From Bacillota bacterium (lineage in GTDB: Bacteria; Bacillota; Sulfobacillia; JAMCWA01): a stretch of 64,000 bases of DNA. The notes under the pieces are model-generated. The model was not told the DNA's origin. It made no database searches and saw only the letters and a program-made list of their open reading frames with translations. The stretch is from positions 130,298 to 194,297 of the forward strand of contig JAMCWA010000088.1 of the NCBI GenBank assembly GCA_023475165.1, given 5' to 3'. Position numbers and translations under genes: made by a program. This document shows positions 12,994-47,405 of the stretch, piece by piece (the stretch's first letter is position 1; each line of letters begins with the position of its first letter).

Positions 12994-13059
12994 CATAGGG
13001 ATGAGAGATGTTCCATGACGCCCTGGGCGGCTGGCGCAAGGAATGAAAAAGCCGCGGTG

Positions 13060-13175
13060 TGGCGACGGGTGGGCGATTGCCGGCCAAGCGATTTCACCTA
13101 GCCGAGCCCGCCACGATGCGGTCGGCGTAGATGACCCAAAGCGAGGACGGCAATCGCCTGTGCGTCGCCCATTGG
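13060..13175. repeat. degenerate inverted-repeat element related to the C-module of the dispersed repeat
   Basis: 'gggcgattgccggc…gcgaggacggcaatcgcctgtgcgtcgccc'. A second copy lies at 62200–62255 in the same orientation relative to its downstream gene. Confidence 0.5.
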
Positions 13176-13183
13176 CAAAGAAG

Positions 13184-13945
13184 GTGTTTGAATTGTCGAC
13201 TTTCATCTACCTCTACGGAGTAATCGACTCCGGACTGCCCCAGTCCCTGGGTTCGGTGAAATTGGGCTCCCTTCCCCGCGAGGTCCGCACCCTGCCCCTG
13301 GAGGAAATAGCAGCTCTGGTCAGTGAGACGGATGAGCAGAACTTTCTCCCCACCCCGGACGATGTCTTGACCCACGAGAAGGTCCTGGAAACGGCCATGG
13401 CCGAGCACACAGTATTACCGATCCGGTTTGGAACTGTGGCCGGCAGTCTTGAGGACGTCCAGGTCTTCCTCAAGGAAAACTACCGGGAGCTTGCAGCCAA
13501 CCTAAGCCAGCTGCGGGGCAAGGTGGAGGTGGGGGTGAAGGCCTTCTGGCACAAGGAAGCGGTTCGTCAGGAGGTGGAACGGGAAGTCGGTCAATTGGCC
13601 CGGCTCAAACAGGAACTGCGGCAAGCTCCCGGTCGGCAGCAAGAGATAGGCCTCGCCGTGGGCCAGGCGACCGAGGCTGTCATCGAGCGCTGGAAGGAAA
13701 CCCATGTCCAGTCTTTTCTGGCTACCCTCCAGGAATATTCTCTGAAAACGAAGATTAATCCGCCCATTAGCATCCACATGCTCCTGAATGCCTCCTTCCT
13801 GGTGGAGCGAGATCAGGAGCCTGGTTTTCGCTGTCGCGTTTTGGAACTGAGCCAGGTCTATACAAAGAAGTTTGGCATAAAGTACGCCGGACCCCTTCCC
13901 CCTTACAACTTTGTTGACGTCAGGCCGGTCCTGCCACAGAGGTGA
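13184..13945 (+). CDS. gvpF: gas vesicle protein GvpF/GvpL family
   Basis: 'YLYGVIDS...VSETDEQNF...HEKVLETAMAEHTVLPIRFGT' is the GvpL_GvpF signature. GTG start at 13184 with AAGAAGG RBS; the upstream part of the listed ORF is repeat-derived. Confidence 0.85.
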   Translation: MFELSTFIYLYGVIDSGLPQSLGSVKLGSLPREVRTLPLEEIAALVSETDEQNFLPTPDDVLTHEKVLETAMAEHTVLPIRFGTVAGSLEDVQVFLKENYRELAANLSQLRGKVEVGVKAFWHKEAVRQEVEREVGQLARLKQELRQAPGRQQEIGLAVGQATEAVIERWKETHVQSFLATLQEYSLKTKINPPISIHMLLNASFLVERDQEPGFRCRVLELSQVYTKKFGIKYAGPLPPYNFVDVRPVLPQR

Positions 13946-14235
13946 CTGGGATGCCGGAAATGAAGCTCTCTTCCCTCGATCTACTCTTCCTTCCGTTAGC
14001 CCTGCCTGCCAAGGGTCTTTGGTTTATCTTGGAGCAGATCACCGACCTGGTCGATAAAGAACTCTACGACGAAGGTACCCTGCGACGAAAACTCCTCGAT
14101 CTGCAGGTTCTTTATGAGCTGGGGGAAATACAAGACGAAGAGTATCGCCAGTCCTGGAAGGACATTACAGCGCGACTGCAGTTCCTGCGCCAACAACAGC
14201 TGAGCGATGAAAACGAAGGAAGGCAGGGGGTCTGA
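13942..14235 (+). CDS. gvpG: gas vesicle protein GvpG
   Basis: 97 aa. 'LVDKELYDEGTLRRKLLDLQVLYELGEIQDEEYRQ' matches GvpG. Start overlaps the gvpF stop (ATGA). Confidence 0.8.
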   Translation: MTGMPEMKLSSLDLLFLPLALPAKGLWFILEQITDLVDKELYDEGTLRRKLLDLQVLYELGEIQDEEYRQSWKDITARLQFLRQQQLSDENEGRQGV

Positions 14236-14240
14236 TTGAC

Positions 14241-14669
14241 GTGGCCTTGCAGGCAACCAAGGGCAGCAGCGGAACCTTGGTCGATGTCATCGACCGGCTC
14301 CTGGATAAGGGTCTGGTGATCAATGCCGACATCCTGGTCTCATTGGCGGGGGTGGAGCTCTTGGGGATCAAGATCCGGGCAGCTCTGGCCTCCCTGGATA
14401 CCGCCGCCAGGTACGGTCTTGAGTTTCCCTCCGGCACCAATTATAACACCCAGGCCTGGCGAGCCCTTGATACGGGAAGAGAAAGCTGCCCTCAATGCGG
14501 AAAAACGGCGACAACCGCGGAACTCCTGGAAGAGGGCTGTCCGTGGTGCGGTTGGAAGAGTGCCAAAGCCCGCCTGAAAGAAGCCCAGATGGCCCTTCCT
14601 GAGGTTGAGAAGGTTAACGTAAACCCACCGGAGGAACTGTATAACCCGGACGGACCGGCGGTCGGCTAG
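14241..14669 (+). CDS. gvpJ: GvpA-family paralogue (GvpJ-like) with C-terminal CxxC…CxxC zinc ribbon
   Basis: 'LVDVIDRLLDKGLVINADILVSLAGVELLGIKIRAALASLDTAARYG' is a GvpA fold, followed by 'CPQCGK…CPWCGW'. Confidence 0.85.
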   Translation: MALQATKGSSGTLVDVIDRLLDKGLVINADILVSLAGVELLGIKIRAALASLDTAARYGLEFPSGTNYNTQAWRALDTGRESCPQCGKTATTAELLEEGCPWCGWKSAKARLKEAQMALPEVEKVNVNPPEELYNPDGPAVG

Positions 14670-14800
14670 AAGACCGCTGAAAAACACCCATCTGCGGTGT
14701 GGCGCAATCGCCAGGAGAAGTTCTCCGAAAATGTGGCGTAACTATAGGCGATTGTGTCGCTCCGGCGGCTTGGTGCTCAGCCCATTTCGGGAATTTGGAG
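14666..14800. mobile_element. truncated MITE-like repeat (TIR plus C-module) inserted between gvpJ and gvpK
   Basis: 'ctagaagaccgctgaaaaacacccatctgcggtgtggcgcaatc…gattgtgtcgctccggcggc' matches 30224–30330. Its CTAG contains the gvpJ TAG stop. Confidence 0.7.
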
Positions 14801-14816
14801 CCAGGATGCTCTACCC

Positions 14817-15119
14817 ATGACCATACAAATCAACGAGAACAACCTGAAGGATGGCCTTTTGGCCCTGGTTCTGGCCCTGGTAGAAATCATAGGCGACGTC
14901 CTTCAACATCAGGCCTTCCGCCGGATGGAGGGTGGCCGTTTGACGGAGGATGAGGTCGAGAGACTGGGTCAAGCCCTCCTGGACTTGGAGGAAGCCTTAG
15001 AGAAGATTAAGCGGGAACAGGGGATCTTTGAGGCGGTCCGGGCCGTACGCCATGGTTTGGATGACGTGGTGGACGACTTCCTCGATCGGGTCATGAATCC
15101 CGCGCGTTGGAGGGATTAA
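14817..15119 (+). CDS. gvpK: gas vesicle protein GvpK
   Basis: 'NLKDGLLALVLALVEIIGDVLQHQAFRRMEGGRLTEDEVERLGQAL' matches GvpK. Start is ATG 14817 after a GGAG RBS; the 21 N-terminal codons of the listed ORF lie inside the repeat. Confidence 0.85.
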   Translation: MTIQINENNLKDGLLALVLALVEIIGDVLQHQAFRRMEGGRLTEDEVERLGQALLDLEEALEKIKREQGIFEAVRAVRHGLDDVVDDFLDRVMNPARWRD

Positions 15120-15123
15120 GGCG

Positions 15124-16518
15124 ATGGGTGAATCCCCGGATTTCCGCCTGGCCTATCTATACACCATCCTGGCCCTTTCCGCCGCCGGCAAGGAAGTCAA
15201 CCGGGAAAACCTTTTGGAGCTTCTGCCTTTGCTGGGGCTTCCCGTTGAGGAAGCCTATTTGGAAGCCCTCCTCCGACTGACCCAGATGCTGGCGCCGGCT
15301 TCTAAGAAAACAGGGGAGCCATCCTCTCTCGGCAGTCCAGTCCTGGCCGAGGGACCTGACGCATCCTGCAGCCCAGCCTCCAGCTCAGAGGGATTCCGGT
15401 TGGGGCGTCCTGACAAGACCAGGACCGAGCCCCCTGCCGATAAGCCTCCCCCAGGAAGCTGGCCTCAAGTAAAGCCGGCCGGGCCGGGATGCTGGCCCAG
15501 GACAGAACCCGCCCCGAGAGGGCATCCTGGGGGAACCAGGCCGGAACCCACAACTGAGAACCCCTTTGCGGCGAGGCCAGAAGGTACTCCGGCTGAGCGC
15601 CCCACCGAGACCAGTCCGGAAGCGTCCGTGACCGGGCCTGCCAGCCAAGCCACCCCGGAACTCTCGGCTGACCATCACCTTCCGACCCGGCCGGGGCTCG
15701 AGCACGCCGAGTTTCCCGGTGAGGCTGAGGCTCAGGCCAAATCCGACTCCCAGCTTTCCGGTCGCTATCTCTATGGGATAGTCCTGACCGATGCTTCCAG
15801 GAGCCTGGGCTACATAGGTCTGGACAAGGGCCTGGTTTATGTCATCTGCGACGGTGGGGTGGGCGCCATTGTCCAGGCCTGTTCCCCAAGACCCTATGTT
15901 TCAGAAGACGAAGAGGTGGTCAAGAAGTGGATCAGTACCCACCACGAGATCCTGGAGTCGGTCATCCAGATATTCGGTACCGTCCTCCCAGTCGGCTTCA
16001 ACACCATCTTCCAGAGCGGCGCCGGCGACCCCGATCAGGTCGTGATCCAATGGCTCTCCGAGAACCGTTCTGACCTCCTGGGCAAGATCGAAAGGGTCCG
16101 GGGAAAATGGGAGTATGGAGTACAGGTGTTCCTCAGTCCCGGCGAAATCGGCGAGAGTCTCCTGGCCAACGACCCCGACCTCAGGAGAACAAAAGAAGAA
16201 GCGAGAACAAAGTCCCCCGGTCTGGCCTATATGTATACCCATAAGTTGGAGAGGACCCTCAAGGAGCGCATCGCGCAGATCTCTGAGCTATACTTTCAGG
16301 AGTTCTACCAGACCATCAAGGTCCATTGCGAAGAGGTACGCGTTGAGAAGACCCGGCCTTGGCCGGACGGTCGACAGATGATCCTGAACCTCTCCTGCCT
16401 AGTCCGAGAGAGCCAGGTCCAACAGTTGGGCGAGGACCTCGAATCCCTCCACCGGCGTACCGGGGTTTCTGTCCGATTCACCGGTCCCTGGCCACCCTAC
16501 AGCTTTGTAAGCCAATAG
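15124..16518 (+). CDS. gvpL: GvpL/GvpF-family protein with N-terminal aL12/P-stalk-like domain and long disordered linker
   Basis: C-terminal 'YLYGIVLTDA...VSEDEEVVKKWISTHHEILESV…LPVGFNT' is a GvpL_GvpF domain. Residues 1–60 read 'FRLAYLYTILALSAAGKEVNRENLLELL…VEEAYLEALLRL'. Residues about 60–200 are P/E/T/S/A-rich. Confidence 0.8.
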   Translation: MGESPDFRLAYLYTILALSAAGKEVNRENLLELLPLLGLPVEEAYLEALLRLTQMLAPASKKTGEPSSLGSPVLAEGPDASCSPASSSEGFRLGRPDKTRTEPPADKPPPGSWPQVKPAGPGCWPRTEPAPRGHPGGTRPEPTTENPFAARPEGTPAERPTETSPEASVTGPASQATPELSADHHLPTRPGLEHAEFPGEAEAQAKSDSQLSGRYLYGIVLTDASRSLGYIGLDKGLVYVICDGGVGAIVQACSPRPYVSEDEEVVKKWISTHHEILESVIQIFGTVLPVGFNTIFQSGAGDPDQVVIQWLSENRSDLLGKIERVRGKWEYGVQVFLSPGEIGESLLANDPDLRRTKEEARTKSPGLAYMYTHKLERTLKERIAQISELYFQEFYQTIKVHCEEVRVEKTRPWPDGRQMILNLSCLVRESQVQQLGEDLESLHRRTGVSVRFTGPWPPYSFVSQ

Positions 16519-16600
16519 GGTGCTGGAAAAGCACCCGCGGCAGTGCGACTACATTTCACGGGAGCCTTTTCCAAAAATCCTGGCAGATGAGGGCTGTCCC

Positions 16601-16912
16601 ATGAAGCCTACGGGTACTGCGCAAGCTACCTTAACCGACCTGCTGGACCGAGCCTTCGACAAGGGGCTGGTCTTAACCGCCGATGTCATCATCAGCGTCT
16701 CCGGGATTCCCTTACTCGGTCTCAACATACGGGCCATTTTGGCCGGTATGGAGACCTTGCTGGAGTACGGAATCATGGCCGACTGGGATAAAGCCCAGAG
16801 GAAGGCCTTTAGGAAAACACCGCAGAGGAACCCGCTGATCTTTTCTGAAAAAGGGCCGTGGCCGATTACTGGAGGGTCAAACCTATGCTCCACGAATCTC
16901 TGCCCCGATTAA
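16601..16912 (+). CDS. gvpS: GvpA-family paralogue (GvpS/GvpM-like)
   Basis: 'ATLTDLLDRAFDKGLVLTADVIISVSGIPLLGLNIRAILAGMETLLEYG'. ATG 16601 with a GAGGG RBS. Confidence 0.8.
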   Translation: MKPTGTAQATLTDLLDRAFDKGLVLTADVIISVSGIPLLGLNIRAILAGMETLLEYGIMADWDKAQRKAFRKTPQRNPLIFSEKGPWPITGGSNLCSTNLCPD

Positions 16913-17298
16913 GGGGGTTCCGCCAGTTGAAAAGTGGCCTGGATCTGACTCGCAGGCGAGAACCCAAAACCAGGCACTCCCTTACCCGCTTAGAGGAAAA
17001 CACCCCGGTGAGGGTAAACCGGCTCTCCCTGGCCAGGAGAATGCGAAGGGCAAGAGACTTTTTTGCCCGCCTACAGGCAAGCGTCACTGGCTTTCAAGAG
17101 AGAATGCTGCGGCAACGGGAAAAGCTCAAGGCGTTAAAAGAAGAAAACCGCCGGCTGGCACAATACCGACTGCGCGGCCAGCGGGAGGAGCAGAACGGGT
17201 CAAAAAACGCCCGGGAAAAGCCTGGACCGGCCCTTTCCGGCGCAGCGCTAAATCAACCCCAGGGAGGAGCAACAAGAAGATGGATTTGGATAAAGTGA
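16885..17298 (+). CDS. hypothetical basic, Arg-rich coiled-coil protein in gvp locus
   Basis: It fills the 370 nt gap between gvpS and gvpO. GGAGGG RBS before ATG 16885. 'RMLRQREKLKALKEENRRLAQYRLRGQREEQ' is a predicted coiled coil. No recognisable family. Confidence 0.4.
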   Translation: MLHESLPRLRGFRQLKSGLDLTRRREPKTRHSLTRLEENTPVRVNRLSLARRMRRARDFFARLQASVTGFQERMLRQREKLKALKEENRRLAQYRLRGQREEQNGSKNAREKPGPALSGAALNQPQGGATRRWIWIK

Positions 17299-17549
17299 TC
17301 CAGCGAGGCGTCTCCACCGTCAAGGAGCTCACCGGCTTGAAACCTTCCACGGTTACGGGAATCAGTCTGGAAGCAGGCAAATGGCTTCTCAGCTTGGAAA
17401 TGGTGGAGATGTCTTCCATTCCCAATGCCATGGACATCCTGGGTCTCTATGACGTCCAACTGGACGAAAACGGGTCACTGCTCTCTTTCCAACGTAGAGG
17501 CCTCCGCCGCCGTGGTGATACCCCAGAGGGTAAACTGGATACAGATTGA
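17280..17549 (+). CDS. gvpO: gas vesicle protein GvpO
   Basis: 'SIPNAMDILGLYDVQLDENGSLLSFQRRGLRRRGD' matches the GvpO C-terminal motif 'DIIGRYEITLD..G.V..YE...RYRRGD'. Confidence 0.75.
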   Translation: MDLDKVIQRGVSTVKELTGLKPSTVTGISLEAGKWLLSLEMVEMSSIPNAMDILGLYDVQLDENGSLLSFQRRGLRRRGDTPEGKLDTD

Positions 17550-17610
17550 GTGTAGACCGGCCGCGGTCGAGTAAAGGGCCGGGCCCGCCTTTCCCTACAA
17601 GGCGGCCGGG

Positions 17611-18606: not shown

Positions 18607-18739
18607 TTCCTGGCCGAGCCGGTGCCCGCCTCCGCCAGGCGCTCCGTCCCCTGCTGCTCCATCGGCAACGCCCGAGCACCCTCAAGGCCGGGGGGAGTTC
18701 ACGACCAGGCTCCCTGGCTGCCACTCCGCGCGTCATTTC

Positions 18740-24702: not shown

Positions 24703-25229
24703 AGGCTCCCCCCCAACGAGTATGATGAAGCAGCCGTCAGGACATATTCCGTCAGTTCAATGACCCCATTTTTCAAGAGCCAAGTCCTTCCCCCGGTCTG
24801 GGTAAAGCCGAAGCTTTCATAAAAGCGTCTGGCCCTCCAGTTCTCCTTCTCCACCGTCAAAGAGACTGGGTAAGCCCCCTCTCCTAAGTCCGTCAAACCC
24901 ATCCGGAGAAGACTCCGGCCCAAGCCTTGACCTTGCCAGGAGGGCAGGAGGTAGAGTCTGGATAACTCCGTCCCCCGAACTGCCCCCGGCAGCACTCTCC
25001 AGCAAAAATGACAGAATCCTGCCACCGATCCCGCCTCAGCCACCAAAAAGGCGGCAGCGGCGTTAATGTCCCCCTCCAGCCGCGGACGGGAATAGTTGCG
25101 TTCCAGGATCTCGTCTATCAATTCCGGCGACAGGCGGCCGCGAAATGTATCTTCCCAGGTTTCCCGGGCCACCTGCTGAATATGAGGAATATCATCGAGC
25201 CTCGCGGGCCTTATCAGGAACTTCGTCAT
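24699..25229 (-). CDS. GNAT family N-acetyltransferase
   Basis: 176 aa. 'LYLLPSWQGQGLGRSLL' is the acetyl-CoA binding motif A. Confidence 0.75.
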   Translation of the reverse strand: MTKFLIRPARLDDIPHIQQVARETWEDTFRGRLSPELIDEILERNYSRPRLEGDINAAAAFLVAEAGSVAGFCHFCWRVLPGAVRGTELSRLYLLPSWQGQGLGRSLLRMGLTDLGEGAYPVSLTVEKENWRARRFYESFGFTQTGGRTWLLKNGVIELTEYVLTAASSYSLGGSL

Positions 25230-25484
25230 TATCGTAACGACCTTCTAACATTGACCGTGCCAGTTGGTATGAAGAGGGCCTTTCCCAGAACAGGAAAAGC
25301 GCCCGGACTCGCACCGAAAATACCTTCGTTTCAACGCCGCTCGGTGCACCCTGCGCCCCGCGGCGTACGAACTTGCCCTAACTATGATATCATAAATGAA
25401 CCAACTAGGCAAAGACACTCTGCAACCTCGGCGCGGTCGACAAACATTGTTTGCAAGTACCTTCTGACCGAAGTACAGAAAACC

Positions 25485-25570
25485 CCGGCCTCCTGGGCCA
25501 GGGTGACCGATCATTTGCAAACTTCCCTGCCGCCTTCGGCGGCACCGCAAAGGATGAAAACAGCGCTTCA
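25485..25570. repeat. degenerate A-module copy
   Basis: 'cctgccgccttcggcggcaccgcaaaggatgaaaacagcgc'. Confidence 0.5.
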
Positions 25571-25769
25571 GCAGGGGTCTGGGCCAGAAACCTCATTGGC
25601 TGGCCAGATGGGTCAATCGCATGAAACCGCTGACCCCGGCAAACACTCAACGCTGTCTATACCAGTCAAATCGTAACGAAGCGGACCCCCGATACTGGCC
25701 AGGTCATTGAGGAGCTTCGTTCACATCGACCCAGACCCGCCAAGCTGGCAGGAGCTCGACTTTTTCATA

Positions 25770-25995
25770 CTAGGAGATCCCCATGCCGCCTTTTGGCGGC
25801 GCCAAAGAGTAATGAAACAGCAGCGGCGCCCCGGAAGCAGCTGGTTTGTTTCAGGATAGACCCCCATGCCGCCAGCGGCACCAGCAGATGATGAAAACGG
25901 CCGCGGCATGGTGATTGTGGCAGGCGAACGACTGGCGGAGCGCCGGAGTGAGCCGGGACAACGCTCGGCCAAGAAACCTTATTTTCAGGATAGAC
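25770..25995. repeat. two tandem A-module copies
   Basis: 'ccccatgccgccttttggcggcgccaaagagtaatgaaacagcagcggcg…ctggtttgtttcaggatagacc' is followed by a variant 'ccatgccgccagcggcacc…gcggcatgg'. Confidence 0.7.
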
Positions 25996-26021
25996 CACTA
26001 AGGAAATGCGATGGGAAGGTC

Positions 26022-26898
26022 TCACGGGCCGGTCGCTCTGTTTTCTACCACCAGTCCGAGAGACTCCATGGCCTTCCTCAAGACGGACCTCTCCGGTGGT
26101 TCCATCTCCCACAGGGGTGGCCGCACCGGACCCACCGGGAAACCGGCTTCACGCAGAGCTGTCTTAACGGGGATGGGGTTGGCGGTGACAAAGAGCGCCC
26201 GGAAAAGTGGCAGCAACTGGCGATGGATCTCAGCGGCGGTGGTTACATCCCCGGCGAGATGGCTGTAGATCAAACGCGAAATCTCTTTCCCGAGCAGGTG
26301 GGAGGCAACGCTGACCACACCGTAACCGCCCAGGGAGAGAATGGGGAGTAAGAGGTTATCGTCCCCGCTGTAGACCGAAAACCCCGTGGGGGCCTGACGT
26401 AAAATCTCCCCCACCTGATTGAGATCACCGCTGGCCTCCTTGATGGCCACAATGTTCGGTATCCGGGCTAAGCGAAGGGTGGTCGGAGGCTGCAGGTTGA
26501 CCCCGGTGCGACTCGGAACGTTATACAGAAGGACAGGTAGTCGCGTTGCTTCCGCGATGGCTTTAAAGTGCTGGTAAAGTCCCTCCTGCGGGGGTTTGTT
26601 GTAATAAGGGGTTACCAGCATGATGCCCTTGATCCCGGTGACTTCCGCCTTCCTGGTCAGAGCCACGCTTTCCGCCGTGGAATAGGTTCCAGTACCGCCC
26701 AGAACCGCTGCCTTTTCTCCCACAGCCTCTACCACCGTCTCCATCAACTGCAGTTTCTCCGACATAGATAAGGTGGGCGATTCACCAGTTGTTCCGGCGA
26801 CAACGATGCCTTCGGACCCCTCCTCTACCAACCGAAGAGCCAGTTCCCTGGTCCGGATCAGATCCAGGGAAAAATCCCGATTAAAGGGTGTGACCATG
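26022..26898 (-). CDS. dapA: 4-hydroxy-tetrahydrodipicolinate synthase
   Basis: 'MVTPFNRDFSLD…VVAGTTGESPTLS…YNVPSRTG'. Start at Met 26898; the longer ORF upstream is a GC artefact. Confidence 0.9.
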
Positions 26899-26950
26899 GC
26901 GGTGATTAACCTACCAAAGGGCAATTTTCTCACTCCTTCCTGGAGCGGAT

Positions 26951-28162
26951 CTATAGACCGAACTTCTGGTGGAGGGCGCGAACGGCCTTCTCCATATCCC
27001 GGATATCGACAAGACAGGAGATGGTCAGGTGAGAATCGCTGGTCTGCAGGATTGGTACTCCCGCCGCCTGCAAGGCTTCCGCCAGCCTGGCCATCACCCC
27101 CGGGACCCCTCTCATGCCGCTCCCCACCACCGAGACCTTGGCGCACTCGTCCCTGATCTGAAGCTCAAGATTCATATCTTTCAAGATGTGGAGGGCTTTC
27201 TCGGCTTTTTCCCCCGCTACCACGAAGACTAGGAGATCAGGAGTCACATTGATCATGTCCAGACTAACGCCGGCATTGCCCAGCCAACGGAAGACTTTGG
27301 CCGGCCATACCCCCTCCGGTTCGGAGGGAACCCGCACCCGGAATTGCGTCAGACCGGGGAGGTTGGTTATTCCAGTTATGACCTTGCCATTTTCCAGAGA
27401 GGGCCAGTTCCCCTCGAGGGCATAGGACAGGAGGGTGCCGGGATGATCACTGAAGGTGGACTTAATGCGGAGGGGAACATTCCACCGCCGGGCGATCTCT
27501 ACCGCCCGGGGATGAATGACCCTAGCCCCTTCATAAGCCAGCTGAGTGATCTCGTCGTAGGTGGCACCCTCCAGGGTTCTGGCCTCCGGAACAATCCTGG
27601 GATCGGCGGTCTTGACACCTTCCACATCAGTATAAACCTCCACCAATTCCGCCCTCAGGGCGGCCCCCAAGGCCACGGCCGTCGTATCGCTGCCGCCCCG
27701 TCCCAGGGTGGTGATATCGCCGTTCTCCGTTACCCCCTGAAATCCGGCCACCACCACCACCTTCCCTTCGTTGAGATGGCGGAGGACATGATCGGGCTGT
27801 ACCCGCAAGATGTGGGCGTCGCCAAAGTTATCGTCGGTAATGATCCCCGCCTGACCGCCGGAAAGAGCCAAAGCCTCGATCTGAAAACCCTTAAGGGTGT
27901 TCGTAAAGATGACGGCCGAGATGAGTTCGCCGCAAGAAGCCAGGAGATCCATCTCCCGCAGCGCCGTGTCGGGATAGACACTCCTGGCCAGACTGATCAG
28001 GGTGTCGGTGGCATAGGGGTCACCGCCCCGCCCCATGGCGGAGACCACCACCACCAGCAGGGCATCTTGCTGCAGGGCCTTCCGGCAGTGCTCCACGGCC
28101 TTAGTCCTGGCCGGCGGCGTCACCAGAGAAGTTCCCCCAAACTTCTGTACGATAATGCGCAT
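26951..28162 (-). CDS. lysC: aspartate kinase
   Basis: 'MRIIVQKFGGTSL' N-terminus and C-terminal ACT domains. Confidence 0.9.
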   Translation of the reverse strand: MRIIVQKFGGTSLVTPPARTKAVEHCRKALQQDALLVVVVSAMGRGGDPYATDTLISLARSVYPDTALREMDLLASCGELISAVIFTNTLKGFQIEALALSGGQAGIITDDNFGDAHILRVQPDHVLRHLNEGKVVVVAGFQGVTENGDITTLGRGGSDTTAVALGAALRAELVEVYTDVEGVKTADPRIVPEARTLEGATYDEITQLAYEGARVIHPRAVEIARRWNVPLRIKSTFSDHPGTLLSYALEGNWPSLENGKVITGITNLPGLTQFRVRVPSEPEGVWPAKVFRWLGNAGVSLDMINVTPDLLVFVVAGEKAEKALHILKDMNLELQIRDECAKVSVVGSGMRGVPGVMARLAEALQAAGVPILQTSDSHLTISCLVDIRDMEKAVRALHQKFGL

Positions 28163-28188
28163 GACTGTACCTCTCCTCCCTCAGTCTT

Positions 28189-28782
28189 TCATTGCCCACT
28201 CCGACTGATGAGAACAGGTTGCAGCTGTCTTCCCTCCAGGGCGGCCATGACCGTCTCCACCAAGAGAGTAAAGTCGGCTTCCAGCGAGGCGGGTTTTTCT
28301 CTGGGATTGTCCTGACCAAAGGGGATGAAGTATATGTTCCTGCAATTCAAGAGGAAACCGATGTTTTTGGCGTTCAGTCCCAGACCGTCGTTGGTGGCCA
28401 CCCCGATGACCACCGGTCGACCATTGCGCAAGGTCGCCTTGGCCGTCATGGTCACCGGTCCGTCGGTGATGGCATTGGCCAGCCTGGATAGGGTATTCCC
28501 GGTACAGGGCGCGATAACCAGGGCATCGAAAAGCCGCCCGGGACCCACTGGCTCCGCCTCCACAATGCTGGTAATGGGGGTGTGTCCGCTAAGCTCCTCG
28601 ACCTTCCTTATCCAGCCTTCCCAGGTTCCAAAACGGGTGGAGGTACTGCTGACCGAGCTTGAAAGAACAGGGAAGACCTCCGCCCCCAGGGTGACCAGTC
28701 GCTCCATCTGGGGTAAGACCTTGGAAAGGGTGCAATGGGATCCCGTTAGAGCCAACCCGATTCTCTTGCCTGACAGATCCAC
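28189..28782 (-). CDS. dpaB: dipicolinate synthase subunit B
   Basis: Flavoprotein-like 'KRIGLALTGSHCT…VIAPCTGNTLSRLANAITDGPV'. GTG start with GGAGGTG RBS. Confidence 0.9.
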   Translation of the reverse strand: MDLSGKRIGLALTGSHCTLSKVLPQMERLVTLGAEVFPVLSSSVSSTSTRFGTWEGWIRKVEELSGHTPITSIVEAEPVGPGRLFDALVIAPCTGNTLSRLANAITDGPVTMTAKATLRNGRPVVIGVATNDGLGLNAKNIGFLLNCRNIYFIPFGQDNPREKPASLEADFTLLVETVMAALEGRQLQPVLISRSGQ

Positions 28783-28802
28783 TTCTTCTCACCTCCTCAG
28801 TC

Positions 28803-29187
28803 CTAGATTTCCATGCCGCCTGCGGCGGCACAAAGAATGAAACAGCAGCTAACTCTTTGCTGGGAGATCCCCATGCCGCCTTTTGGCGGCGCCAAAGAGT
28901 ATTGAAACAGCAGCGGCGGCCTGGCAGTAGCTGGTTTGTTTTAGGGTAGAGTGCTGACAAACTGCGTTTTGAGTGGTTAACCCACCCGAGAAACCGTTAG
29001 GGCGAGAGCTCAAATCAGCCCAGATGCTAGGAGCAACAAGGCTCCGAGGCGAGGCGTACTGGGCGGTACGTTGAGCGAGGAGCCGACGGAGCGACAATCG
29101 GCAATAGTAACGCCCCTTGAACAAGGTGGATCTTTCTTGCAGATTGCGCCACACCGCAAGATGGGGGTTTTTCAGAAGTCTCCTAGG
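28803..29187. mobile_element. full composite repeat copy (A-A-B-C plus TIR) inserted between dpaB and dpaA
   Basis: It ends '…ttttcagaagtctcctagg'. The CTAG supplies the dpaA TAG stop. A 17-bp tandem duplication 'gacgtcggcaaactctt' follows, at 29187–29220. Confidence 0.8.
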
Positions 29188-30081
29188 ACGTCGGCAAACT
29201 CTTGACGTCGGCAAACTCTTCAGGAAACTCCCTGGCCAAAAAGGAGGCAACAACTTGGAAAATGGCTCGTCCTGCCGTCCTGGGAGCGACCTTGCCGGGC
29301 AACCCCAGAGCCCAGATCGTCTTTAGGCCTAGCTCCCCGGCTCCTGCAAAATCGGTTCCACCGGGGGCGGAAGCCAGATCAATGATCAAGAGTTCAGGTT
29401 GGGCTTTCCCCAAGACCTCCCGGTTCAGCACCAGCGCCGGGATGGTATTAAAGACTACTGTACCCTCCCGGATGACCGCGCCCAGGTTGCGAAGGGGCAC
29501 CGGGCAGCAGCCCATCTCGGCGGCCCGGGCCAATTGCGCCGGGTTTCTGGCCACGACCACTGTGCGCGCCCCCAATCCGCAAAGCATTCTGGCCAGGGTC
29601 AGCCCCGTCCGCCCCAGTCCTAGAACCAGGGCGGTACTGCCGTGCAGGGTCACTGGCAGGTTCTCCATGGCTACTTGCAGGGCCCCTTCCGCGGAAGGAA
29701 TGGAGTTGAGAATGGCAAAGTCGTCACGCTCCCGGTAAGGTATGACCCTAACCCCAGCGGCCGCCGCAGCTACTTCCAAAGCCGGATTACTGCTGCCAAA
29801 AAAGAGGAGGCCCCCCTTCTGCATGGACGCCAGGGCGGTTTCCTCCAGCTTCATTTCGCAACCGTAAGCGTTCTTAATACCTCCAGAGGAGTCCAAGCCC
29901 AAAACCGGGCCTACGACCAGACGGGCACCGGCCAGGGCTTCCGGCAGACCGCGGGTGTAGCCGATGCCCTCCGGCACAAGATTAACCGGGCAACCAGCAA
30001 TAACCACTTCCTCCACCCAACCGCGAAAATAGCCGGCCGCCTCTACCTCCCTTCTATCACCTACCAAGATGGCCAGTTTCA
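29183..30081 (-). CDS. dpaA: dipicolinate synthase subunit A
   Basis: Rossmann 'GLGRTGLTLARML'. Start at 'MKLAILVGD' (30081). The last 11 codons are encoded by the 17-bp duplication and the element CTAG. Confidence 0.85.
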
Positions 30082-30223
30082 TGTTGTCCCTCCGCCCCTC
30101 CGAATCAACCTCCGTCCTCGGCCCCACCCGGGTTCTTCGCGCCAACCTCCAGCCTCCAACCTCTAACCTCCGCCCTTTTGGCCTATCCCAGTATATGTGA
30201 CCCGAAGTCTGTGGGTGCCTGCC

Positions 30224-30465
30224 CCTAGGAGACCGCTGAAAAACACCCATCTGCGGTGTGGCGCAATCTGCAAGAAAGAACCTTTTCATTAAAGGGCGTT
30301 GCTATTGCAGATTGTCGCGCCTGCGGCTGGTGCTAACGTATTTCTCTATGCGCCTCCGCGCCAAGCCTTGTCGCTCCTAGTATCTGGGCTGAATTGAGGT
30401 CTCGCCTTAACGATTTCTCGGGTGGGTTAACCACTCAGAACGCAGTTTGTCAGCGGTCTCCTAGG
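30224..30465. mobile_element. MITE-like element (C+B modules) with perfect 15-bp terminal inverted repeats
   Basis: 'cctaggagaccgctg…cagcggtctcctagg'. No ORF. The C and B modules match seven or more other loci. Confidence 0.85.
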
Positions 30466-30593
30466 TTCCTCTGGCATTAGGGACGGCAAAGCCCCGCCGC
30501 CCTTGGGAGATCATTGCCAAGGCCGGTCTGCTGCCCTGTCGCTGAAGCTTTCGAAGGGTCGCCAAGAGCTTTGAAGTCTAGAAATCTCATGAC

Positions 30594-30628
30594 TGAAAAA
30601 AAGAGCCCCTGTCTCGGACAGGGACTCC
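30594..30628 (-). terminator. rho-independent terminator downstream of the YflT-like gene
   Basis: Minus strand: CCCTGTC-cga-GACAGGG, then GCTC TTTTTTT. Confidence 0.7.
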
Positions 30629-30654
30629 CCGGTCAGACCGATGTTTCCAAGTTT

Positions 30655-30705
30655 CTCGAGCGAGTTAACCATTCAAGACGCAGTTCATCTGCTGTCTCCT
30701 AGTGG
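30655..30705. repeat. B-module fragment
   Basis: 'gagttaaccattcaagacgcagttcatctgctgtctcctag'. Confidence 0.5.
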
Positions 30706-31196
30706 GTCTCAACATCAGTGGCACCGTTTTGCCGGAGGATGGAGGCTGCCTCACTCACCTTCTTCTCATCGGATTTAATGACGGTCAGGATGCTGCCCCG
30801 CTTAACTTCTTCCTCATAAAAGCGACCCCTGGCCTCGGGGATCCCCAGGTCCAGCAGTCCACCAGCGATGCCCCCGGTTACAGCTCCGGTCAAACCGGCG
30901 GCAATGGGTCCAGCCGCCAGGATGGGACCGACCCCGGGTATAGCCAGGGCTCCCGCCCCGGCCAGCAGGCCGGCCAAACCGCCAATGGTTCCACCGGTTA
31001 GAGTACCGTTAGAAAGGTTGTCATTGGCGAAACCACCGCCCTGCCCGCCTCTTGTACCAGTCTGACCGCCCCGAGCGGTAGCTTCCTTGGCCACTATGGA
31101 GATCTCGTTGTTGGTAAAGCCTTTTCTGCGCAAATCGTCAACAGCCGTCTCAGCTTGTTGTCGTGACTTAAAGACACCGATCACCGTCTTGGACAT
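30699..31196 (-). CDS. YflT-like general stress protein with glycine-zipper segment
   Basis: 'VIGVFKSRQQAETAVDDLRRKGF…ISIV' N-terminus. 'GGLAGLLAGAGALAIPGVGPILAAG' is a glycine zipper. C-terminus 'ILTV…ASILRQNGATDV'. Confidence 0.55.
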   Translation of the reverse strand: MSKTVIGVFKSRQQAETAVDDLRRKGFTNNEISIVAKEATARGGQTGTRGGQGGGFANDNLSNGTLTGGTIGGLAGLLAGAGALAIPGVGPILAAGPIAAGLTGAVTGGIAGGLLDLGIPEARGRFYEEEVKRGSILTVIKSDEKKVSEAASILRQNGATDVETH

Positions 31197-31294
31197 TTAA
31201 AAACCTCCTTCTTGTTGACCTACCATTAGTATGAGAAGGAGGCGCCTGGCTTTATTCAATTTCTGAAGATCTTAACAACCCAAAGAGCGAAAAC

Positions 31295-31615
31295 CTAACG
31301 CCTTTGCCCGCGCAGGGTTAAGCCAAAATAGGGCTGGAGGATGGCCAGGAGCATGGCCAGGGCTGCCAGTGGGTCAAAGGCCATTCCCCACAGCCCGATC
31401 CGATCGGGCGGGTTAAGTTTGAGAAATTGGATGATCCCGGCCAGGGCCAAATAGATTCCGGCGGCCATGGCCAGAAAGTCTTTGAGGGCATCCGCCAGAG
31501 GAGAGGCGACGGCTGGAGTCTCCTCCCTGGTCGTCACCCGTAAGGACACCCGCCGTACTATCGAACTTACCACCAGAAGAAAGAGGATGGCCACCGCCAC
31601 TGGGGTCATCGCCAT
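31295..31615 (-). CDS. hypothetical small membrane protein
   Basis: 106 aa with 3 predicted TM helices. No family recognised. Confidence 0.35.
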   Translation of the reverse strand: MAMTPVAVAILFLLVVSSIVRRVSLRVTTREETPAVASPLADALKDFLAMAAGIYLALAGIIQFLKLNPPDRIGLWGMAFDPLAALAMLLAILQPYFGLTLRGQRR

Positions 31616-31619
31616 GTCC

Positions 31620-31710
31620 CTGCTCCCCCCTGGGAGACCGCTGGAGAACTCCCATCTGCGTGCCAGGCGGGCTCCCGCCCGTCTGAAACCGCAGTTCGTC
31701 AGCAGTCACG
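31620..31710. repeat. repeat fragment (TIR plus B-module end)
   Basis: 'gggagaccgctggagaactcccatctgcg…aaaccgcagttcgtcagcagtc'. Confidence 0.5.
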
Positions 31711-31905
31711 ACAATAGTTGCTTAATATCTTGTATGCCCGCAGGTCGCAAAAAAGACCGGGCTGGGCCGCTTTGCCTTCCCACGCCGGGCAAAAAAAATC
31801 CGAGTCCTCCTCGGTGTTTGGTTTTCAGGGTCAGCACCTCGGCCAACCCCTTGCCCAGCTGTGATGACGACAGGTTGGCACCTACTGGTGGCGAAAAAGC
31901 ACGCT

Positions 31906-32112
31906 CTATCTACCGCTTTGCAACCTCAAAGCCCGGACGATCAGGAAATCCAGTTGCCGTGAGAGGGTCCACACCGCCTGAATCCTCCCGCTATCGTATT
32001 CAGGCCCGCTGTCCTCTTGCAGCTGCCTTCGGAGTCGCTCGATCTCCAAGAGCAGCTCTGCTTCGCTCAAAAACGACCTCGTCCTCCTTTTTTTCTCTTT
32101 TGAGGTGAACAA
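31906..32112 (-). CDS. Spo0E-like sporulation regulatory phosphatase
   Basis: 68 aa. 'LLLEIERLRRQLQE…LSRQLDFLIVRAL' resembles the Spo0E helix-hairpin motif (SQELD.LI). Confidence 0.5.
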   Translation of the reverse strand: MFTSKEKKRRTRSFLSEAELLLEIERLRRQLQEDSGPEYDSGRIQAVWTLSRQLDFLIVRALRLQSGR

Positions 32113-32251
32113 ATCGCCAAATAGTCGCCTAATCCTTCAGCCAGGCTCAACCATATGCGATTATACTACACTCCCCCGGTCACGTCCAATTAAATCGATC
32201 GCAATTTCCGACAAGATCATACCCTTCAGATCGACTTTTTTCGATAAAAAA

Positions 32252-32715
32252 CTATTTCCGTAGCCCAGTATGGCCAAAACCTCCCGCCCCACGCTGCGTC
32301 GCCTCCAGTTCCTCAACCTCGACCAGTTCCGCCCGAAGCACCGGTTGGAGGACCAATTGGGCGATCCGGTCGCCGCGCCGGATGACAAAGGGCTCTTTCC
32401 CGAGGTTAATGAGAATAACCTGGACCTCTCCCCGGTAATCACTGTCAATGGTACCGGGGCTGTTCAAGAGGGTTACCGAATGTTTGAGGGACAGACCGCT
32501 CCTGGGACGCACCTGACCCTCGTACCCGGGTGGAACGGCCAAAGATAACCCCGTCGGGACCAGGGTCACCCCTCCAGCCGGTAGCGTTATTTCCGCCTCG
32601 ACGGCGGCGTAGAGATCCATCCCGGCCGCTCCCTCCGTCATGTAGCGAGGAAGAGGTAGATCCTCAGTCCCCTTGCGGCGTCGCACCCGGACGATGATGT
32701 TCTGGCCCTGTCTCA
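32252..32715 (-). CDS. dut: dUTP diphosphatase
   Basis: 'AAGMDLYA', 'RSGLSLKH', '[11 protein letters not shown]', and 'GDRIAQLV'. Start is Met 32715. Confidence 0.85.
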
Positions 32716-32735
32716 TCCGAAAAACCCCCTTTGTC

Positions 32736-33040
32736 TTGGAGACCGCTGGAAAACACCCATCTGCGTTGCCGCAATCCGCCGGAGGACTCTTCCTAAAAAT
32801 GGGACGCGCCTGTGGCGGATTGCCGGGCAATCGGCCCGCAACAACTTGCCATCAAGTCAGGCGTCGGCTAAGGCCGATTGTGGCGCAATTCGCCAGGGGA
32901 GCTTTCCTGGTCAGATGGTGCATGACTACGACGAATTGTGTCGTTCCGGCGGCTCCTCACTCAACGTACCGCCCAGTACGCCTCGCTTCGGAGCCTTGTC
33001 GCTCCTAGCATCTGGGCATTCTTGAGCGGTCTTGGCCCAA
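32736..33040. mobile_element. composite repeat copy with internal duplication
   Basis: 'cttggagaccgctggaaaacacccatctgcg…ggcgattgtggcgcaat…cttgtcgctcctagcatctgggc…gagcggtcttggcc'. Confidence 0.7.
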
Positions 33041-33089
33041 CAGTGTGGCTAAAGCCGTCAGAAGGACTTTCGTTATCAAGCCTTTTATA

Positions 33090-33243
33090 GACTATGGCGT
33101 CTTTCCTCGGGCAGGTAACCACTCAAACCGCAGTTCGTCAGCATTCTACACGGAAACAAACCAGCTACTTCCAGGACGCCGCTGCTGTTTCACTACCCTT
33201 TGGCGCCGCCAAAAGGCGGCATGGGGGTCTCCTAGGAGACCTT
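33090..33243. mobile_element. B(partial)+A modules in reverse orientation ending in an abutted TIR–TIR palindrome
   Basis: '…ggcggcatgggggtctcctaggagacc'. The CTAG supplies the TAG stop of the M16 peptidase. Confidence 0.7.
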
Positions 33244-34494
33244 CTCCCGCCCGCCAGGAAGGAGACGGCTCAGCCGCTTTTCACTGATTGGTCCAACCGC
33301 CGCCGCCGACAGGTCATCAATCTGCAATACCAACTCGGCGATGGCCGCAAGATCCTCCAGAGTAACGGCCTCAATCTTGGCCAGGAGCTCATCCAAACTC
33401 AAAACCCGGCCAAGCAAGATTTCCGAGCGGCCCAAATGACTCATCCGACTCCCAGTGCCCTCCAGACCCAGCATGAGCCCGCCCTTTAACTGTTCCTTGG
33501 CCCTCACCATTTCCTCCCGGCTTACTTCCCCCTGGCGAAGGGCTTGCATCTCCCTTTGGATCAGGCTAACAACCCGCTCCAGATATCGCGAGCTCATCCC
33601 GGCATAGACGGTGAAAAGACCGGCATCGTCAAAGGAAGACGGATAGGAATAGATGGAGTAAACCAGACCCATCTCCTCCCTCACCTTTTGGAAGAGCCTG
33701 GAGCTGGAGCCTCCCCCCAGGATGGTGTTTAGGACATTGAGCGAATAGTTGCGTTCGTCACCGGTGGGTAGTCCTCTGGTGCCCAGACAGAGATGGACCT
33801 GTTCCGTCCGGCGTTTTTTTAAGAGGACGCCGGGCAAGTCCAGCGGCTTCTCCCCCGTTGGAAGGTCGGACCTGCTTCCCTCCCAGGCGTCAAAAGCCCC
33901 TCCCACCAGGTCAAAAACCTCCTTGGCCTGGACATGTCCGGCTACGGACAGGACGGTCTGGCCCGGAACATAATTCTCTCGAAAATAACCCAAGATGTCT
34001 GCCGCCCGCATTCCTGCGATGACCTCCTTGCTTCCCAGGACGGGTCGACCCAGGGGGTGACCGTCCCAGCGGCTGCGGGCAAAAAGGTCATGTACTTCTT
34101 CATCCGGGGTATCCTCATACATCTTGATCTCTTCCAGGATTACACCGCGCTCGCGTTCCATATCCCCCGGATCAAAGCGAGGTGACAGGATCATGTCGGC
34201 GAGGACCTCGGTGGCTATCCCCAGATGCTCGTCCATGACTTTGGCATAATAGCAGGTATACTCCTTGGTGGTATAGGCGTTGATCTGACCCCCCAGACCT
34301 TCAATGGCTTCCGCCAGCTGGCGGGCTGTCCGCTTCTCCGTCCCTTTGAAAAGGAGGTGTTCGATGAAATGGGAAATCCCAGCCTGATCATCCCTTTCCC
34401 GGCGTGAACCTACTCCTACCCAAACCCCTATGGAGACGGAGCGGACGTGGGGTATTTCCTCCACCAGTATTCTCAGCCCATTGGGCAATACCAT
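33232..34494 (-). CDS. M16 family zinc peptidase (pitrilysin-like)
   Basis: Inverted zincin 'HFIEHLLFKGT' motif. Probable start is 'MVLPNGLRILVEE' (34494); 34530 is an alternative. Confidence 0.8.
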   Translation of the reverse strand: MVLPNGLRILVEEIPHVRSVSIGVWVGVGSRRERDDQAGISHFIEHLLFKGTEKRTARQLAEAIEGLGGQINAYTTKEYTCYYAKVMDEHLGIATEVLADMILSPRFDPGDMERERGVILEEIKMYEDTPDEEVHDLFARSRWDGHPLGRPVLGSKEVIAGMRAADILGYFRENYVPGQTVLSVAGHVQAKEVFDLVGGAFDAWEGSRSDLPTGEKPLDLPGVLLKKRRTEQVHLCLGTRGLPTGDERNYSLNVLNTILGGGSSSRLFQKVREEMGLVYSIYSYPSSFDDAGLFTVYAGMSSRYLERVVSLIQREMQALRQGEVSREEMVRAKEQLKGGLMLGLEGTGSRMSHLGRSEILLGRVLSLDELLAKIEAVTLEDLAAIAELVLQIDDLSAAAVGPISEKRLSRLLPGGREKVS

Positions 34495-39308: not shown

Positions 39309-39324
39309 GACTGCCTGAAAAGGC

Positions 39325-39375
39325 CTCGGCGTGGCGACGGGCAGGTTAACCCGTCAGAACGCAGTTTGTCAGCTA
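39325..39375. repeat. B-module fragment
   Basis: 'gttaacccgtcagaacgcagtttgtcagc'. Confidence 0.5.
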
Positions 39376-40337
39376 TCGGCTAAAGCCCCCCGCACCGCGG
39401 TGATAACCTTCTCTCTGGCCTCATTTAAGGGAAGAGATAGGGTGCACCCAGCGGCACGGGGATGCCCACCCCCGTCAAAATGGCTGGCCACACGGCTCAC
39501 GTCCACTTGGTGGCGGGAACGTAAGGAGACGCGCACCTTCCCGTCACCCGTCTCCCGAAAAAGGAGGCCGACCTCAACCCCGCGGATGGCCCGGGCATAG
39601 TTAATGATACCCTCGGTTTCCTCATCGCTGGCTCCCGTCTCCTCCAAAGCGGCTCGGCTGATCACCAACCAGGCCACCTTTCCATCCGGGGTCAACTCCA
39701 GAGTCTCCAAGGCCCGCCCAAGAAGGCGCGCGCTGGAAAGAGACCTGGTCTCAAAGGCGTTTTCGGCCACCTGAGCCGGCTTGGCCCCCAGTCTCACCAG
39801 TTCCGCCGCCACGCGGAAGGTGCTCTCCCTGGTACTCTCATACCGAAAGGAGCCGGTATCCGTAACAATGGCCGTATAAAGGCAGGTAGCGATCGCCGGG
39901 CTGATGTCTACCTCCATGCTCCTCAATAGCTCATAGATCTGCTCACCTACCGCTGCCGCCTGTACGTCGACATAGTTATACTGCCCAAAGCCGGCGTTAG
40001 TGCCGTGGTGATCGATGTTGACTACTAAAGCTACCCTCGCCAAAAGCTTTGCCGCCTCCCCGACTCGCGTCGGGTCACCGCAATCTACCAGTACTCCCAC
40101 CCGGAAATCCCCCTCAACCTGGCGCCAATCCGCGATTTCTCCGGACCCAGGCAGGAACTGGTAGATCTCCGGAAGGGGGTCAGACCGCACCACCACTGCT
40201 TTTTTGCCCAGGAGCCGGAGGGAGAGGCCCAGGGCCAGGGCGGAACCGAGGGTATCCCCGTCGGGCTGGACATGGGTGAAAATGAGAAAACCATTTTCCC
40301 GTTGAAAGAGTTCGGCCAGGTCTTTAGGAGACTCCAT
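39369..40337 (-). CDS. nrnA: DHH-family bifunctional oligoribonuclease / pAp phosphatase NrnA
   Basis: 'FTHVQPDGDTLGS', 'DHHGTN', and the DHHA1 C-terminus. Start at 'MESPKD'. Confidence 0.8.
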   Translation of the reverse strand: MESPKDLAELFQRENGFLIFTHVQPDGDTLGSALALGLSLRLLGKKAVVVRSDPLPEIYQFLPGSGEIADWRQVEGDFRVGVLVDCGDPTRVGEAAKLLARVALVVNIDHHGTNAGFGQYNYVDVQAAAVGEQIYELLRSMEVDISPAIATCLYTAIVTDTGSFRYESTRESTFRVAAELVRLGAKPAQVAENAFETRSLSSARLLGRALETLELTPDGKVAWLVISRAALEETGASDEETEGIINYARAIRGVEVGLLFRETGDGKVRVSLRSRHQVDVSRVASHFDGGGHPRAAGCTLSLPLNEAREKVITAVRGALADS

Positions 40338-45245: not shown

Positions 45246-45292
45246 CGCTAGGAGACCGCTTAAAAAGGGTTTTCCAGCGGTCTCCTAGGTTT
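45246..45292. repeat. solo-TIR palindrome of the MITE family between nusA and ylxR
   Basis: 'gctaggagaccgcttaaaaagggttttccagcggtctcctagg': a 10–11 bp stem with a 14 nt loop. The CTAG supplies the nusA TAG stop. Confidence 0.8.
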
Positions 45293-46973: not shown

Positions 46974-47134
46974 GTTAAAAAGAGTGGGTAGTCACCCACT
47001 CCTCCGACGACAGCGACAAAACTTCGGTTATCGTCTCTGGCCCTTGAAGACCAAAAGTTCGACACCTTTTTGAGTATATCATATGATTTGAAGCAAAACA
47101 AGGATATCTTTTTGATTCCAGTTGGCTGCTGGGG

Positions 47135-47405
47135 GGCCGCCGAAAAACCTCCCCCTCTGTGGCGCAACCATTTCCTGGTCGGGCAGGCCACTGAAACCCA
47201 GCCGGTCAGTGGTCGCCCAGGAGACTGCTGACGAACTACGTCTTGAGTGGTTAACCCGCCCGAGATACCGTTCGGGCGAGACCGCTCAAAAATGCCCAGA
47301 TGCTAGGAGCGACAAGGCTCCGAAGCGAGGCGTACTAAGTGGTACGTTGAGCGAGGAGCCGCCGGAGCGACACCGCAGATGGGTGTTTTTCAGCGGTCTC
47401 CTAGC
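47135..47405. mobile_element. MITE-like repeat copy (C and B modules, TIRs)
   Basis: 'ggccgccgaaaaacc…gttaacccgcccgagataccgtt…cagcggtctcctagc'. The TIR encodes the last 5 codons and the TGA stop of murC. Confidence 0.8.

Follow-up and report, generated by a model that had tools for sequence, protein, structure and literature searches.

What are the short, CTAG-bounded repeats that crowd the intergenic DNA of this genome, and what kind of transposase could have moved them? The stretch analysed, called the window here, is 64 kb long and carries genes for dipicolinate synthase A and B, NusA, RnpM, ScpB and MurC, together with a gas-vesicle cluster. The nearest relatives of its DpaB protein share 99% identity, the next 78% and the rest at most 66%; the host, known from a MAG, is therefore a sparsely sampled, uncultured and spore-forming lineage of Bacillota. 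A Geobacter host, considered from base composition because 'multicopy nucleotide sequences' have been published for that genus, was rejected in view of dpaA/dpaB, rnpM and the names of the MAGs. The gas-vesicle cluster (about nt 11700–17550) includes gvpA-like genes, a gvpN-like AAA gene, gvpF/L, gvpG, gvpK and gvpO, and half of one of the repeats lies after one gvpA-like gene. Such a cluster is unusual, although some anaerobic Bacillota are known to have one. A lysine riboswitch (Rfam RF00168, 115.9 bits) is located at nt 59304–59489 on the minus strand, upstream of ORF 57742–59274. Comparison of the window with the corresponding NCBI MAG contig showed differences at nt 11493 and 18699–18707, comprising a 9-bp, non-coding indel and a cluster of 1–2-bp changes.

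The reference element (nt 30224–30465) is non-coding, starts with CCTAGGAGACCGCTG (nt 30224–30238) and ends with CAGCGGTCTCCTAGG (nt 30451–30465). These termini form a perfect inverted repeat (15/15 bp), and 20 of 21 positions pair when the comparison is extended. The perfect 15-bp TIRs and lack of coding capacity described in the initial annotation are borne out. Searches of the window by BLASTN, repeat finding and an nhmmer profile returned three further near-full copies, about 76–83% identical to the reference, as well as the main-family fragments given in Table 1; something was recovered, whether fragment or copy, at every position previously listed for the main family. The other full copies have these TIRs as well. 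The TIR pattern CTAGGAGACCGCTGA, allowing up to three mismatches, occurs at 21 sites, compared to 1.78 ± 1.30 in shuffled sequences, none of which reached 21. Overall, about 15 main-family pieces (whole, truncated or minimal) are spread across about 12 intergenic regions of the 64-kb window. Copies range from 41 to 246 bp in length, have no capacity to encode a transposase and occur in both orientations relative to the adjacent genes, and many pieces are half-elements with a single end. Repeats make up about 2.6 kb, or 4% of the window and about one-quarter of its intergenic DNA. Every piece is intergenic after gene starts are corrected to the public annotation of the same organism. Only one long ORF overlaps a copy, and this is dpaA extended upstream: its family match begins at residue 69, and the MAG annotation places the dpaA start outside the element. 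The copies found by BLASTN and nhmmer, along with the 21 TIR sites, support the earlier description of a MITE-like family that is non-coding, TIR-bounded, multicopy and almost wholly intergenic. A viral-contig scan gave no sign of phage carriage, returning one match only, and a metagenome scan using the PNPase that adjoins the repeat cluster returned relatives of no more than 64% identity, none of them with the TIR.

Table 1. Repeats of the main family and A-type units in the window (positions in nt)
Feature	Position	Strand	Remarks
Reference full-length MITE, 242 bp	30224–30465	+	Upstream of dpaA; layout is CTAG and TIR, left hairpin module C, internal CTAG at 30377, right module B, TIR and CTAG
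Near-full copy	28948–29187	-	CTAG at 29183–29186 contains the dpaA TAG stop; second TIR 3 nt short, abutting an A-unit; part of composite 28803–29187 that fills the dpaA-dpaB gap
Full-length copy, 246 bp	54312–54557	+	Right-hand CTAG contains the scpB TAG stop
Copy of 189 bp without C hairpin	47216–47404	-	murC stop is TGA inside the TIR; missing from a ~99% identical strain
Minimal 41-bp element (TIR, 12-nt loop, TIR)	45248–45288	.	Between nusA and rnpM; right-hand CTAG is the nusA stop
Left half, TIR and variant C hairpin	14666–14784	+	CTAG contains the TAG stop of a gas-vesicle protein gene
Cluster of pieces	32735–33149	+	Left end with C hairpin (32735–32839); second C hairpin and central module (32879–33073); right end (33103–33149)
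Solo right end	7040–7101	+	Degenerate flank CTAA
Solo right end	30651–30702	+	CTAG contains the TAG stop of yflT-like gene 30699–31196
Left-end fragment (CTGG and TIR), then short right-end fragment	31630–31708	+	
Solo right end	39321–39382	+	Stop of DHH-family gene 39369–40337 is TGA in the TIR
Weak left-end fragment	47130–47168	+	nhmmer E = 0.095; adjoins the 47216 copy
Solo end, ATAG flank	55856–55885	-	Stop of gene 55869–56909 is TGA in the TIR
A-family units	25526–25995	+	All between 25229 and the dapA-like gene; long unit 25526–25640; tandem units 25770–25862 (start CTAGGAGAT) and 25863–25995
Two tandem A-units	28803–28950	+	28803–28859 and 28860–28950
A-unit joined to a right end	33146–33235	-	Joined in the same manner as at 28950; CTAG at 33232–33235 contains the M16 peptidase TAG stop
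Long A-type units, tandem	1998–2200	-	
Long A-type motif	13115–13170	.	Upstream of gvpF
Long A-type motif	62209–62239	.	

Comparison of close strains provided an empty site. A Logan contig of sequencing run SRR28285718 (L150), 99.0–99.4% identical to the window, lacks exactly the 47216–47404 copy, while the reference copy at 30224–30465 is present in the strain of that run. The empty allele reads CAGAG-CTGG-GCGACC, and the occupied allele of the window CAGAG-CTAG-(GAGACCGCTG...CAGCAGTCTC)-CTGG-GCGACC. A single CTGG in one strain and CTAG...CTGG around the element in the other fits a 4-bp target duplication, which is how the initial annotation had interpreted the CTAG flank, with the qualification that the two tetranucleotides differ by one base (CTAG and CTGG), the empty allele carrying the latter. 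The difference between the strains could equally be the result of a precise deletion. Duplication of 2 bp inside CTAG could produce the identical sequence at canonical sites, and the non-canonical flanks seen in other genomes are merely degenerate and do not tell 2-bp and 4-bp duplication apart; the empty site CTGG contains no TA, which argues against a TA duplication of the IS630 type. Directly adjoining this polymorphic copy is a degenerate hairpin (nt 47170–47215, CTGG-GCGACCACTGA-loop-TCAGTGGCC) that resembles an old minimal element and, in the empty allele, supplies the C-terminal residues and stop codon of murC (LGDH*). The newer insertion at 47216 may have used this hairpin as its target.

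Other sites differ as well. About 17 bp lie between dpaA and dpaB in a related species with 78% DpaB identity, compared to 400 bp in the window, where the gap is filled by a 385-bp composite with CTAG flanks. At the 14666 site, another metagenome shows one more right end, set against the CTAG, and one more C hairpin in tandem. In all, strains of 99–99.5% identity differ at no fewer than three sites. The 3' end of dpaA itself carries a 17-bp tandem duplication (AAGAGTTTGCCGACGTC, two copies; nt 29187–29220, minus strand) directly against the CTAG of the MITE; the duplication shifts the reading frame, so that dpaA ends at the TAG of the MITE. The relative in L148 differs at the C-terminus and stops with TAA.

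The family was traced outside the host by its ends. A scan of 185,579 species genomes for CTAGGAGACCGCTGAMAAA returned at least 65 loci. The matches listed include multicopy elements in Anaerolineae, Thermoflexales, Desulforudis sp. Tu-874, another Bacillota MAG, Thermoleophilaceae and Aerophobetes, and many of them are located at contig ends. Among them are complete short elements of about 120–290 bp with CTAG on either side, and CTAG flanks both sides of every complete element examined. The listed elements have the terminal 19–25 nt in common and unrelated interiors. For ends that were not selected by the search pattern, again among the listed loci, the flank is CTAG in 14 of 19, the remainder being one-base variants. 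Short elements of Anaerolineae (L006, L026, L038, L039, L046, L064 and L066) have unequal ends, GAGACCGCTGAAAAA and GAGCGTGCTGAAAAA, so variation is allowed at the three central TIR bases, with GAG and GCTGAAAAA fixed. Matches in three Ralstonia species (L042, L051 and L057) are probably due to chance. They are single-copy and lie at one conserved cheD-cheB locus, where the 19-nt TIR pattern overlaps the cheD stop codon and an AGGAG resembling a ribosome-binding site, an arrangement conserved in all three species.

Full-length insertion sequences with the same TIRs were also found, all in phyla other than that of the host. The terminus CTAG-GAGACYGCTGAA bounds a 1,715-bp element in a Thermoleophilaceae MAG (L036, nt 1849–3563) with a single ORF that contains the Pfam domains DUF772 and DDE_Tnp_1_6. 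This ORF scores 319.4 bits on the NCBIfam model NF033551 ('IS1182 family transposase', cut-off 270) but is below the cut-off in all four IS5 models (NF033581, 84 bits, cut-off 140; NF033578, 71 bits, cut-off 275; NF033580, 26 bits, cut-off 110; NF033579, 22 bits, cut-off 140). The same terminus also adjoins a second copy of the element (L021) and, in an Anaerolineae MAG (L029), a transposase of 35% identity. From the annotated plasmid records, ISMgi3 of Mycolicibacterium gilvum (pMSPYR101), recorded as 'IS1182-like element ISMgi3 family transposase', has CTAG-GAGACTGCTGAATTA at either end. No Tc1/IS630-type domain was matched in the insertion sequences carrying these ends. IS1182 is a family that was formerly grouped with IS5. 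The TIR type is not general to it, as annotated elements of Deinococcus and Microvirga have other ends, and an annotated Streptomyces IS1182-family element shows only a short, unclear match to the TIR; the other ends in Deinococcus and Microvirga indicate that the CTAG-GAGAC type of end marks a subgroup of IS1182 and not the whole family. Because the insertion sequences with these TIRs encode IS1182-family transposases, the partner of the MITEs appears to be of the IS1182 type and not of the IS5 group proper. Of the original proposal of an IS5-group transposase, the transposon partner with a CTAG target can be retained, while the assignment to IS5 does not hold. A cognate transposase is absent from the window, as had been stated: a tBLASTN search of the 64 kb with the L036 transposase found none. 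Published members of the IS1182 family include ISPse1, which was trapped experimentally and has 16-bp IRs and a 4-bp DR (PMC3281130), and IS1182-derived MITEs with 4-bp DRs are known from Methanosarcina acetivorans (PMC3852290).

As DNA, the 242-bp element is predicted to fold with an energy of -53.1 kcal/mol (z = -6.1 compared to shuffled sequences), the TIRs forming a stem that is accompanied by several internal hairpins. Left module C forms a long hairpin whose flanks are conserved (GGCGCAAT ... ATTGTGTCGC) and whose inner stem varies on both sides between copies, and these two-sided changes hint at structural selection beyond the needs of transposition. The hairpin is cleanly missing from the 47216 copy and is doubled elsewhere. 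The left and right parts of the reference element are divided by the internal CTAG at nt 30377, before which stands an end-like CTCCTAG. Head-to-tail elements that share a single CTAG occur in other genomes and in one variant of the 14666 site. What the initial annotation called 'modules' are hairpin units that are linked through internal CTAGs and vary in number from strain to strain. At the junctions of A- and B-type sequence at 28950 and 33146 the TIR is short by the same 3 nt, which would fit the copying of a composite. The central ~95 nt can be aligned with a Desulforudis element (score 23 versus 11.2 ± 2.0 in shuffles); the family is therefore shared among Bacillota lineages. In Rfam 15 no family matches any of the repeats at gathering thresholds, the lysine riboswitch being the only match in the window, and nothing was found in nt 25000–33500 at E ≤ 1. 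The element stems are not followed by a terminator-like T-run.

The A-type repeats are best regarded as a second, related and partly explained family, and not as a module of the main element. A-units begin with the outer half of the TIR (CTAGGAGAY, or TAGA when 3 nt shorter), followed by a conserved hairpin (CATGCCGCC-N3-4-GGCGGC), a second, variable hairpin and the end GTTTGTTTCAGG-RTAG. This end resembles the inner TIR half only, and there is no proper TIR pair. The A-module copies of the initial annotation are real and were located at about 2110, 25526, 25770, 28803/28860 and 33146–33235. Tandem arrangements occur at 25770–25995, 28803–28950 and about 2000–2200. The motif GGCGACGCnCGGGCGaTTGcCGTCCTCGCTT is found in the long A-type repeat (nt 2150–2196) and stands alone in two other intergenic regions (nt 13115–13170 and 62209–62239). 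The supposed degenerate relatives of the main element at 13060 and 62200 show no match to it and carry this long A-type motif instead, and so belong with the second family. The A-unit at 28860–28950 is missing from a 99.5% identical strain, and the junction shows a microhomology (AGA) with loss of 3 nt from the neighbouring TIR, unlike a simple CTAG duplication. A gene-free gap of about 790 bp (nt 25229–26022), unusually long and located downstream of the dapA-like gene, consists mostly of A-type units.

Many of the elements coincide with the ends of genes. CTAG is under-represented in the window, with 64 occurrences versus 234 expected, and 18 of the 64 are in or at repeats. Nine of the approximately 59 window genes end inside an element end. 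In six of these the stop codon is the TAG of the flanking CTAG (dpaA, the yflT-like gene, the M16 peptidase gene, nusA, scpB and a gas-vesicle gene), and in the others (murC, the DHH-family gene and gene 55869–56909) it is the TGA of the TIR in the frame CTA GGA GAC CGC TGA. The same pattern is seen at the listed loci of other genomes, where an ORF of at least 100 codons stops at the TAG of the CTAG at 21 of 80 ends and at the TGA of the TIR at 10 of 80, the third frame being represented at none of the 80. The full-length L036 element is positioned between two convergent ORFs, both of which stop within the flanking CTAGs. Overlap with stop codons is an expected consequence of a CTAG target: many insertions fall on them because CTAG is rare in the genome and C followed by TAG often marks the end of a gene. 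The placement fits target choice combined with selection against insertions that extend proteins. A statement of this overlap for such ends was not found in the literature searched.

Taken together, these results are best explained if the repeats are MITEs mobilised in trans by an IS1182-type (ISMgi3-like) transposase with a CTAG target and 4-bp duplication, a reading given a probability of slightly above 80%. Each element consists of a TIR pair of about 16–20 bp (GAGACCGCTGAAAAAC) that encloses non-coding DNA rich in hairpins. A DDE transposase of the ISMgi3-like subgroup of IS1182, encoded elsewhere in the genome or since lost, would bind the ends and move the element into a CTAG, duplicating those 4 bp. 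Each insertion would recreate CTAG at both ends and so turn existing elements into new targets, which would explain the head-to-tail clusters sharing a single CTAG as well as the composites with internal CTAGs, later moved or duplicated as one unit. Read inward, the TIR would offer TAG in one frame and the TGA described above in a second, leaving the neighbouring protein intact or changed by only a few residues. In the third frame, translation would continue deep into the element, and selection appears to act against such insertions. A further role is speculative, for instance an effect of hairpins in the 3' UTR on the stability of the mRNA. A much wider claim can be made only tentatively and is probably too strong: that the CTAG-GAGACYGCTGAA terminus defines a MITE/IS superfamily extending across Bacillota, Chloroflexota, Actinomycetota and Aerophobota, with ends adapted to C-TAG stops, to replacement stops in two frames and to near-neutral insertion, and with C hairpins and A-units spread by a separate, undescribed mechanism.

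Several other explanations deserve consideration. IS5 and IS630 both prefer CTAG, and MITEs of an IS5-group or IS630/Tc1-type partner could look much the same: in the IS630 version the ends would be GGAGAC...GTCTCC with only the TA inside CTAG duplicated, and canonical sites (C-TA-GGAGAC...GTCTCC-TA-G) are identical under the IS1182 and IS630 models. A 4-bp duplication of the CTAG/YTAR type is seen here too, but it is common to IS1182 and IS5 and so does not discriminate between them. The transposases that accompany these ends do: they are IS1182-type, fall below the IS5 cut-offs and gave no match to a Tc1/IS630-type domain. Added to the TA-less empty allele and the 4-bp DRs reported for IS1182 members (PMC3281130, PMC3852290), this makes a partner of either kind unlikely. 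The repeats might otherwise serve chiefly as functional structures in RNA or DNA, for instance as attenuators, as stabilisers in the 3' UTR or as sites for protein binding, much like REP/BIME or BOX. Selection would then keep them, recombination would be their main means of spread, and the transposon-like ends would be incidental or ancestral. The strong fold, the hairpins kept through two-sided stem changes, the frequent placement right after stop codons and the central module still recognisable in the Desulforudis element would all suit such a role, whereas the occurrence of copies in both orientations, the lack of Rfam matches at E ≤ 1 and the missing T-run would not. Across phyla only the ends are conserved and the interiors are unrelated, as expected if it is the transposase site that matters. 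As the chief explanation, function is thus unlikely, although it is not exclusive of, and indeed compatible with, the MITE reading.

The minimal 41-bp copy is a simple hairpin that opens with a conserved tetranucleotide, and in this respect superficially resembles REP sequences (5' GTAG), which raises the question of REP/REPIN-type palindromes moved by a RAYT (an IS200/IS605-like tyrosine transposase). Single-strand HUH transposition gives no target duplication, whereas the flanks here behave as one; moreover, the tetranucleotide is CTAG and not GTAG, the ends are common to insertion sequences with DDE transposases, and an unsystematic look beside the copies noticed no RAYT gene, so that this origin is very improbable. 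That the copies are assembly artefacts or collapsed repeats, a concern raised in the initial annotation, can be dismissed almost entirely. Short-read contigs of this organism do often stop inside repeats, but the same copies are found in the same places, at 99.9–100% identity, in the NCBI MAG (GCA_023379645.1) and in Logan unitigs of several sequencing runs, and with about 20% difference from one another the copies of the window are not collapsed duplicates.

Among known systems, the IS1182 elements of the ISMgi3 type and MITEs such as those derived from ISMac2 in Methanosarcina acetivorans are similar in that the latter are likewise short, non-coding and multicopy. The window family shares the CTAG-GAGACYGCTGAA end with ISMgi3, and its IR of about 16 bp and 4-bp duplication fit the published members (PMC3281130, PMC3852290). 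It differs in being previously undescribed, in residing in an unclassified Bacillota MAG while the partner is known from other phyla, and in its very high density (about one-quarter of intergenic DNA) and its hairpin-module composites joined at internal CTAGs. The IS5 group prefers CTAG/YTAR targets with a 4-bp duplication, and IS5 itself thus has the same target tetranucleotide and duplication length as the window elements. Its own ends (GGAAGGTGCGAA...), however, are unrelated to the window TIRs, and transposases linked to TIRs of the window type pass only the IS1182 model, with scores of 22–84 bits on IS5 models that have cut-offs of 110–275. BOX, RUP and SPRITE of Streptococcus pneumoniae, Correia elements of Neisseria and ERIC of enterobacteria are also small, structured, intergenic and without a transposase, and BOX, like the window elements, is built of modules, with internal units in variable number. 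The pneumococcal elements also cluster and insert into each other (PMC10969869). All of these have other termini, targets and presumed partner families, and effects on expression have been documented for them. REP/BIME and REPINs are again hairpin-forming extragenic repeats that lie just after genes and begin with a conserved tetranucleotide, but the REP/REPIN-RAYT system involves GTAG and an HUH enzyme, in contrast to the CTAG, DDE partner and target duplication of the window elements.

The repeats do not represent a new kind of mobile element; their interest lies in their density, in a terminus that is near-invariant across phyla, in the supply of stop codons and in module variation at the level of strains. 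Contigs break at them, which explains the poor assembly of this Bacillota lineage, and with at least three variable sites among strains of 99–99.5% identity they offer a ready marker for strain typing. For annotation, it is of consequence that several gene ends (murC, dpaA, nusA, scpB and others) are set by transposon sequence. More generally, the family links a very conserved transposon end to insertion close to stop codons across several phyla.
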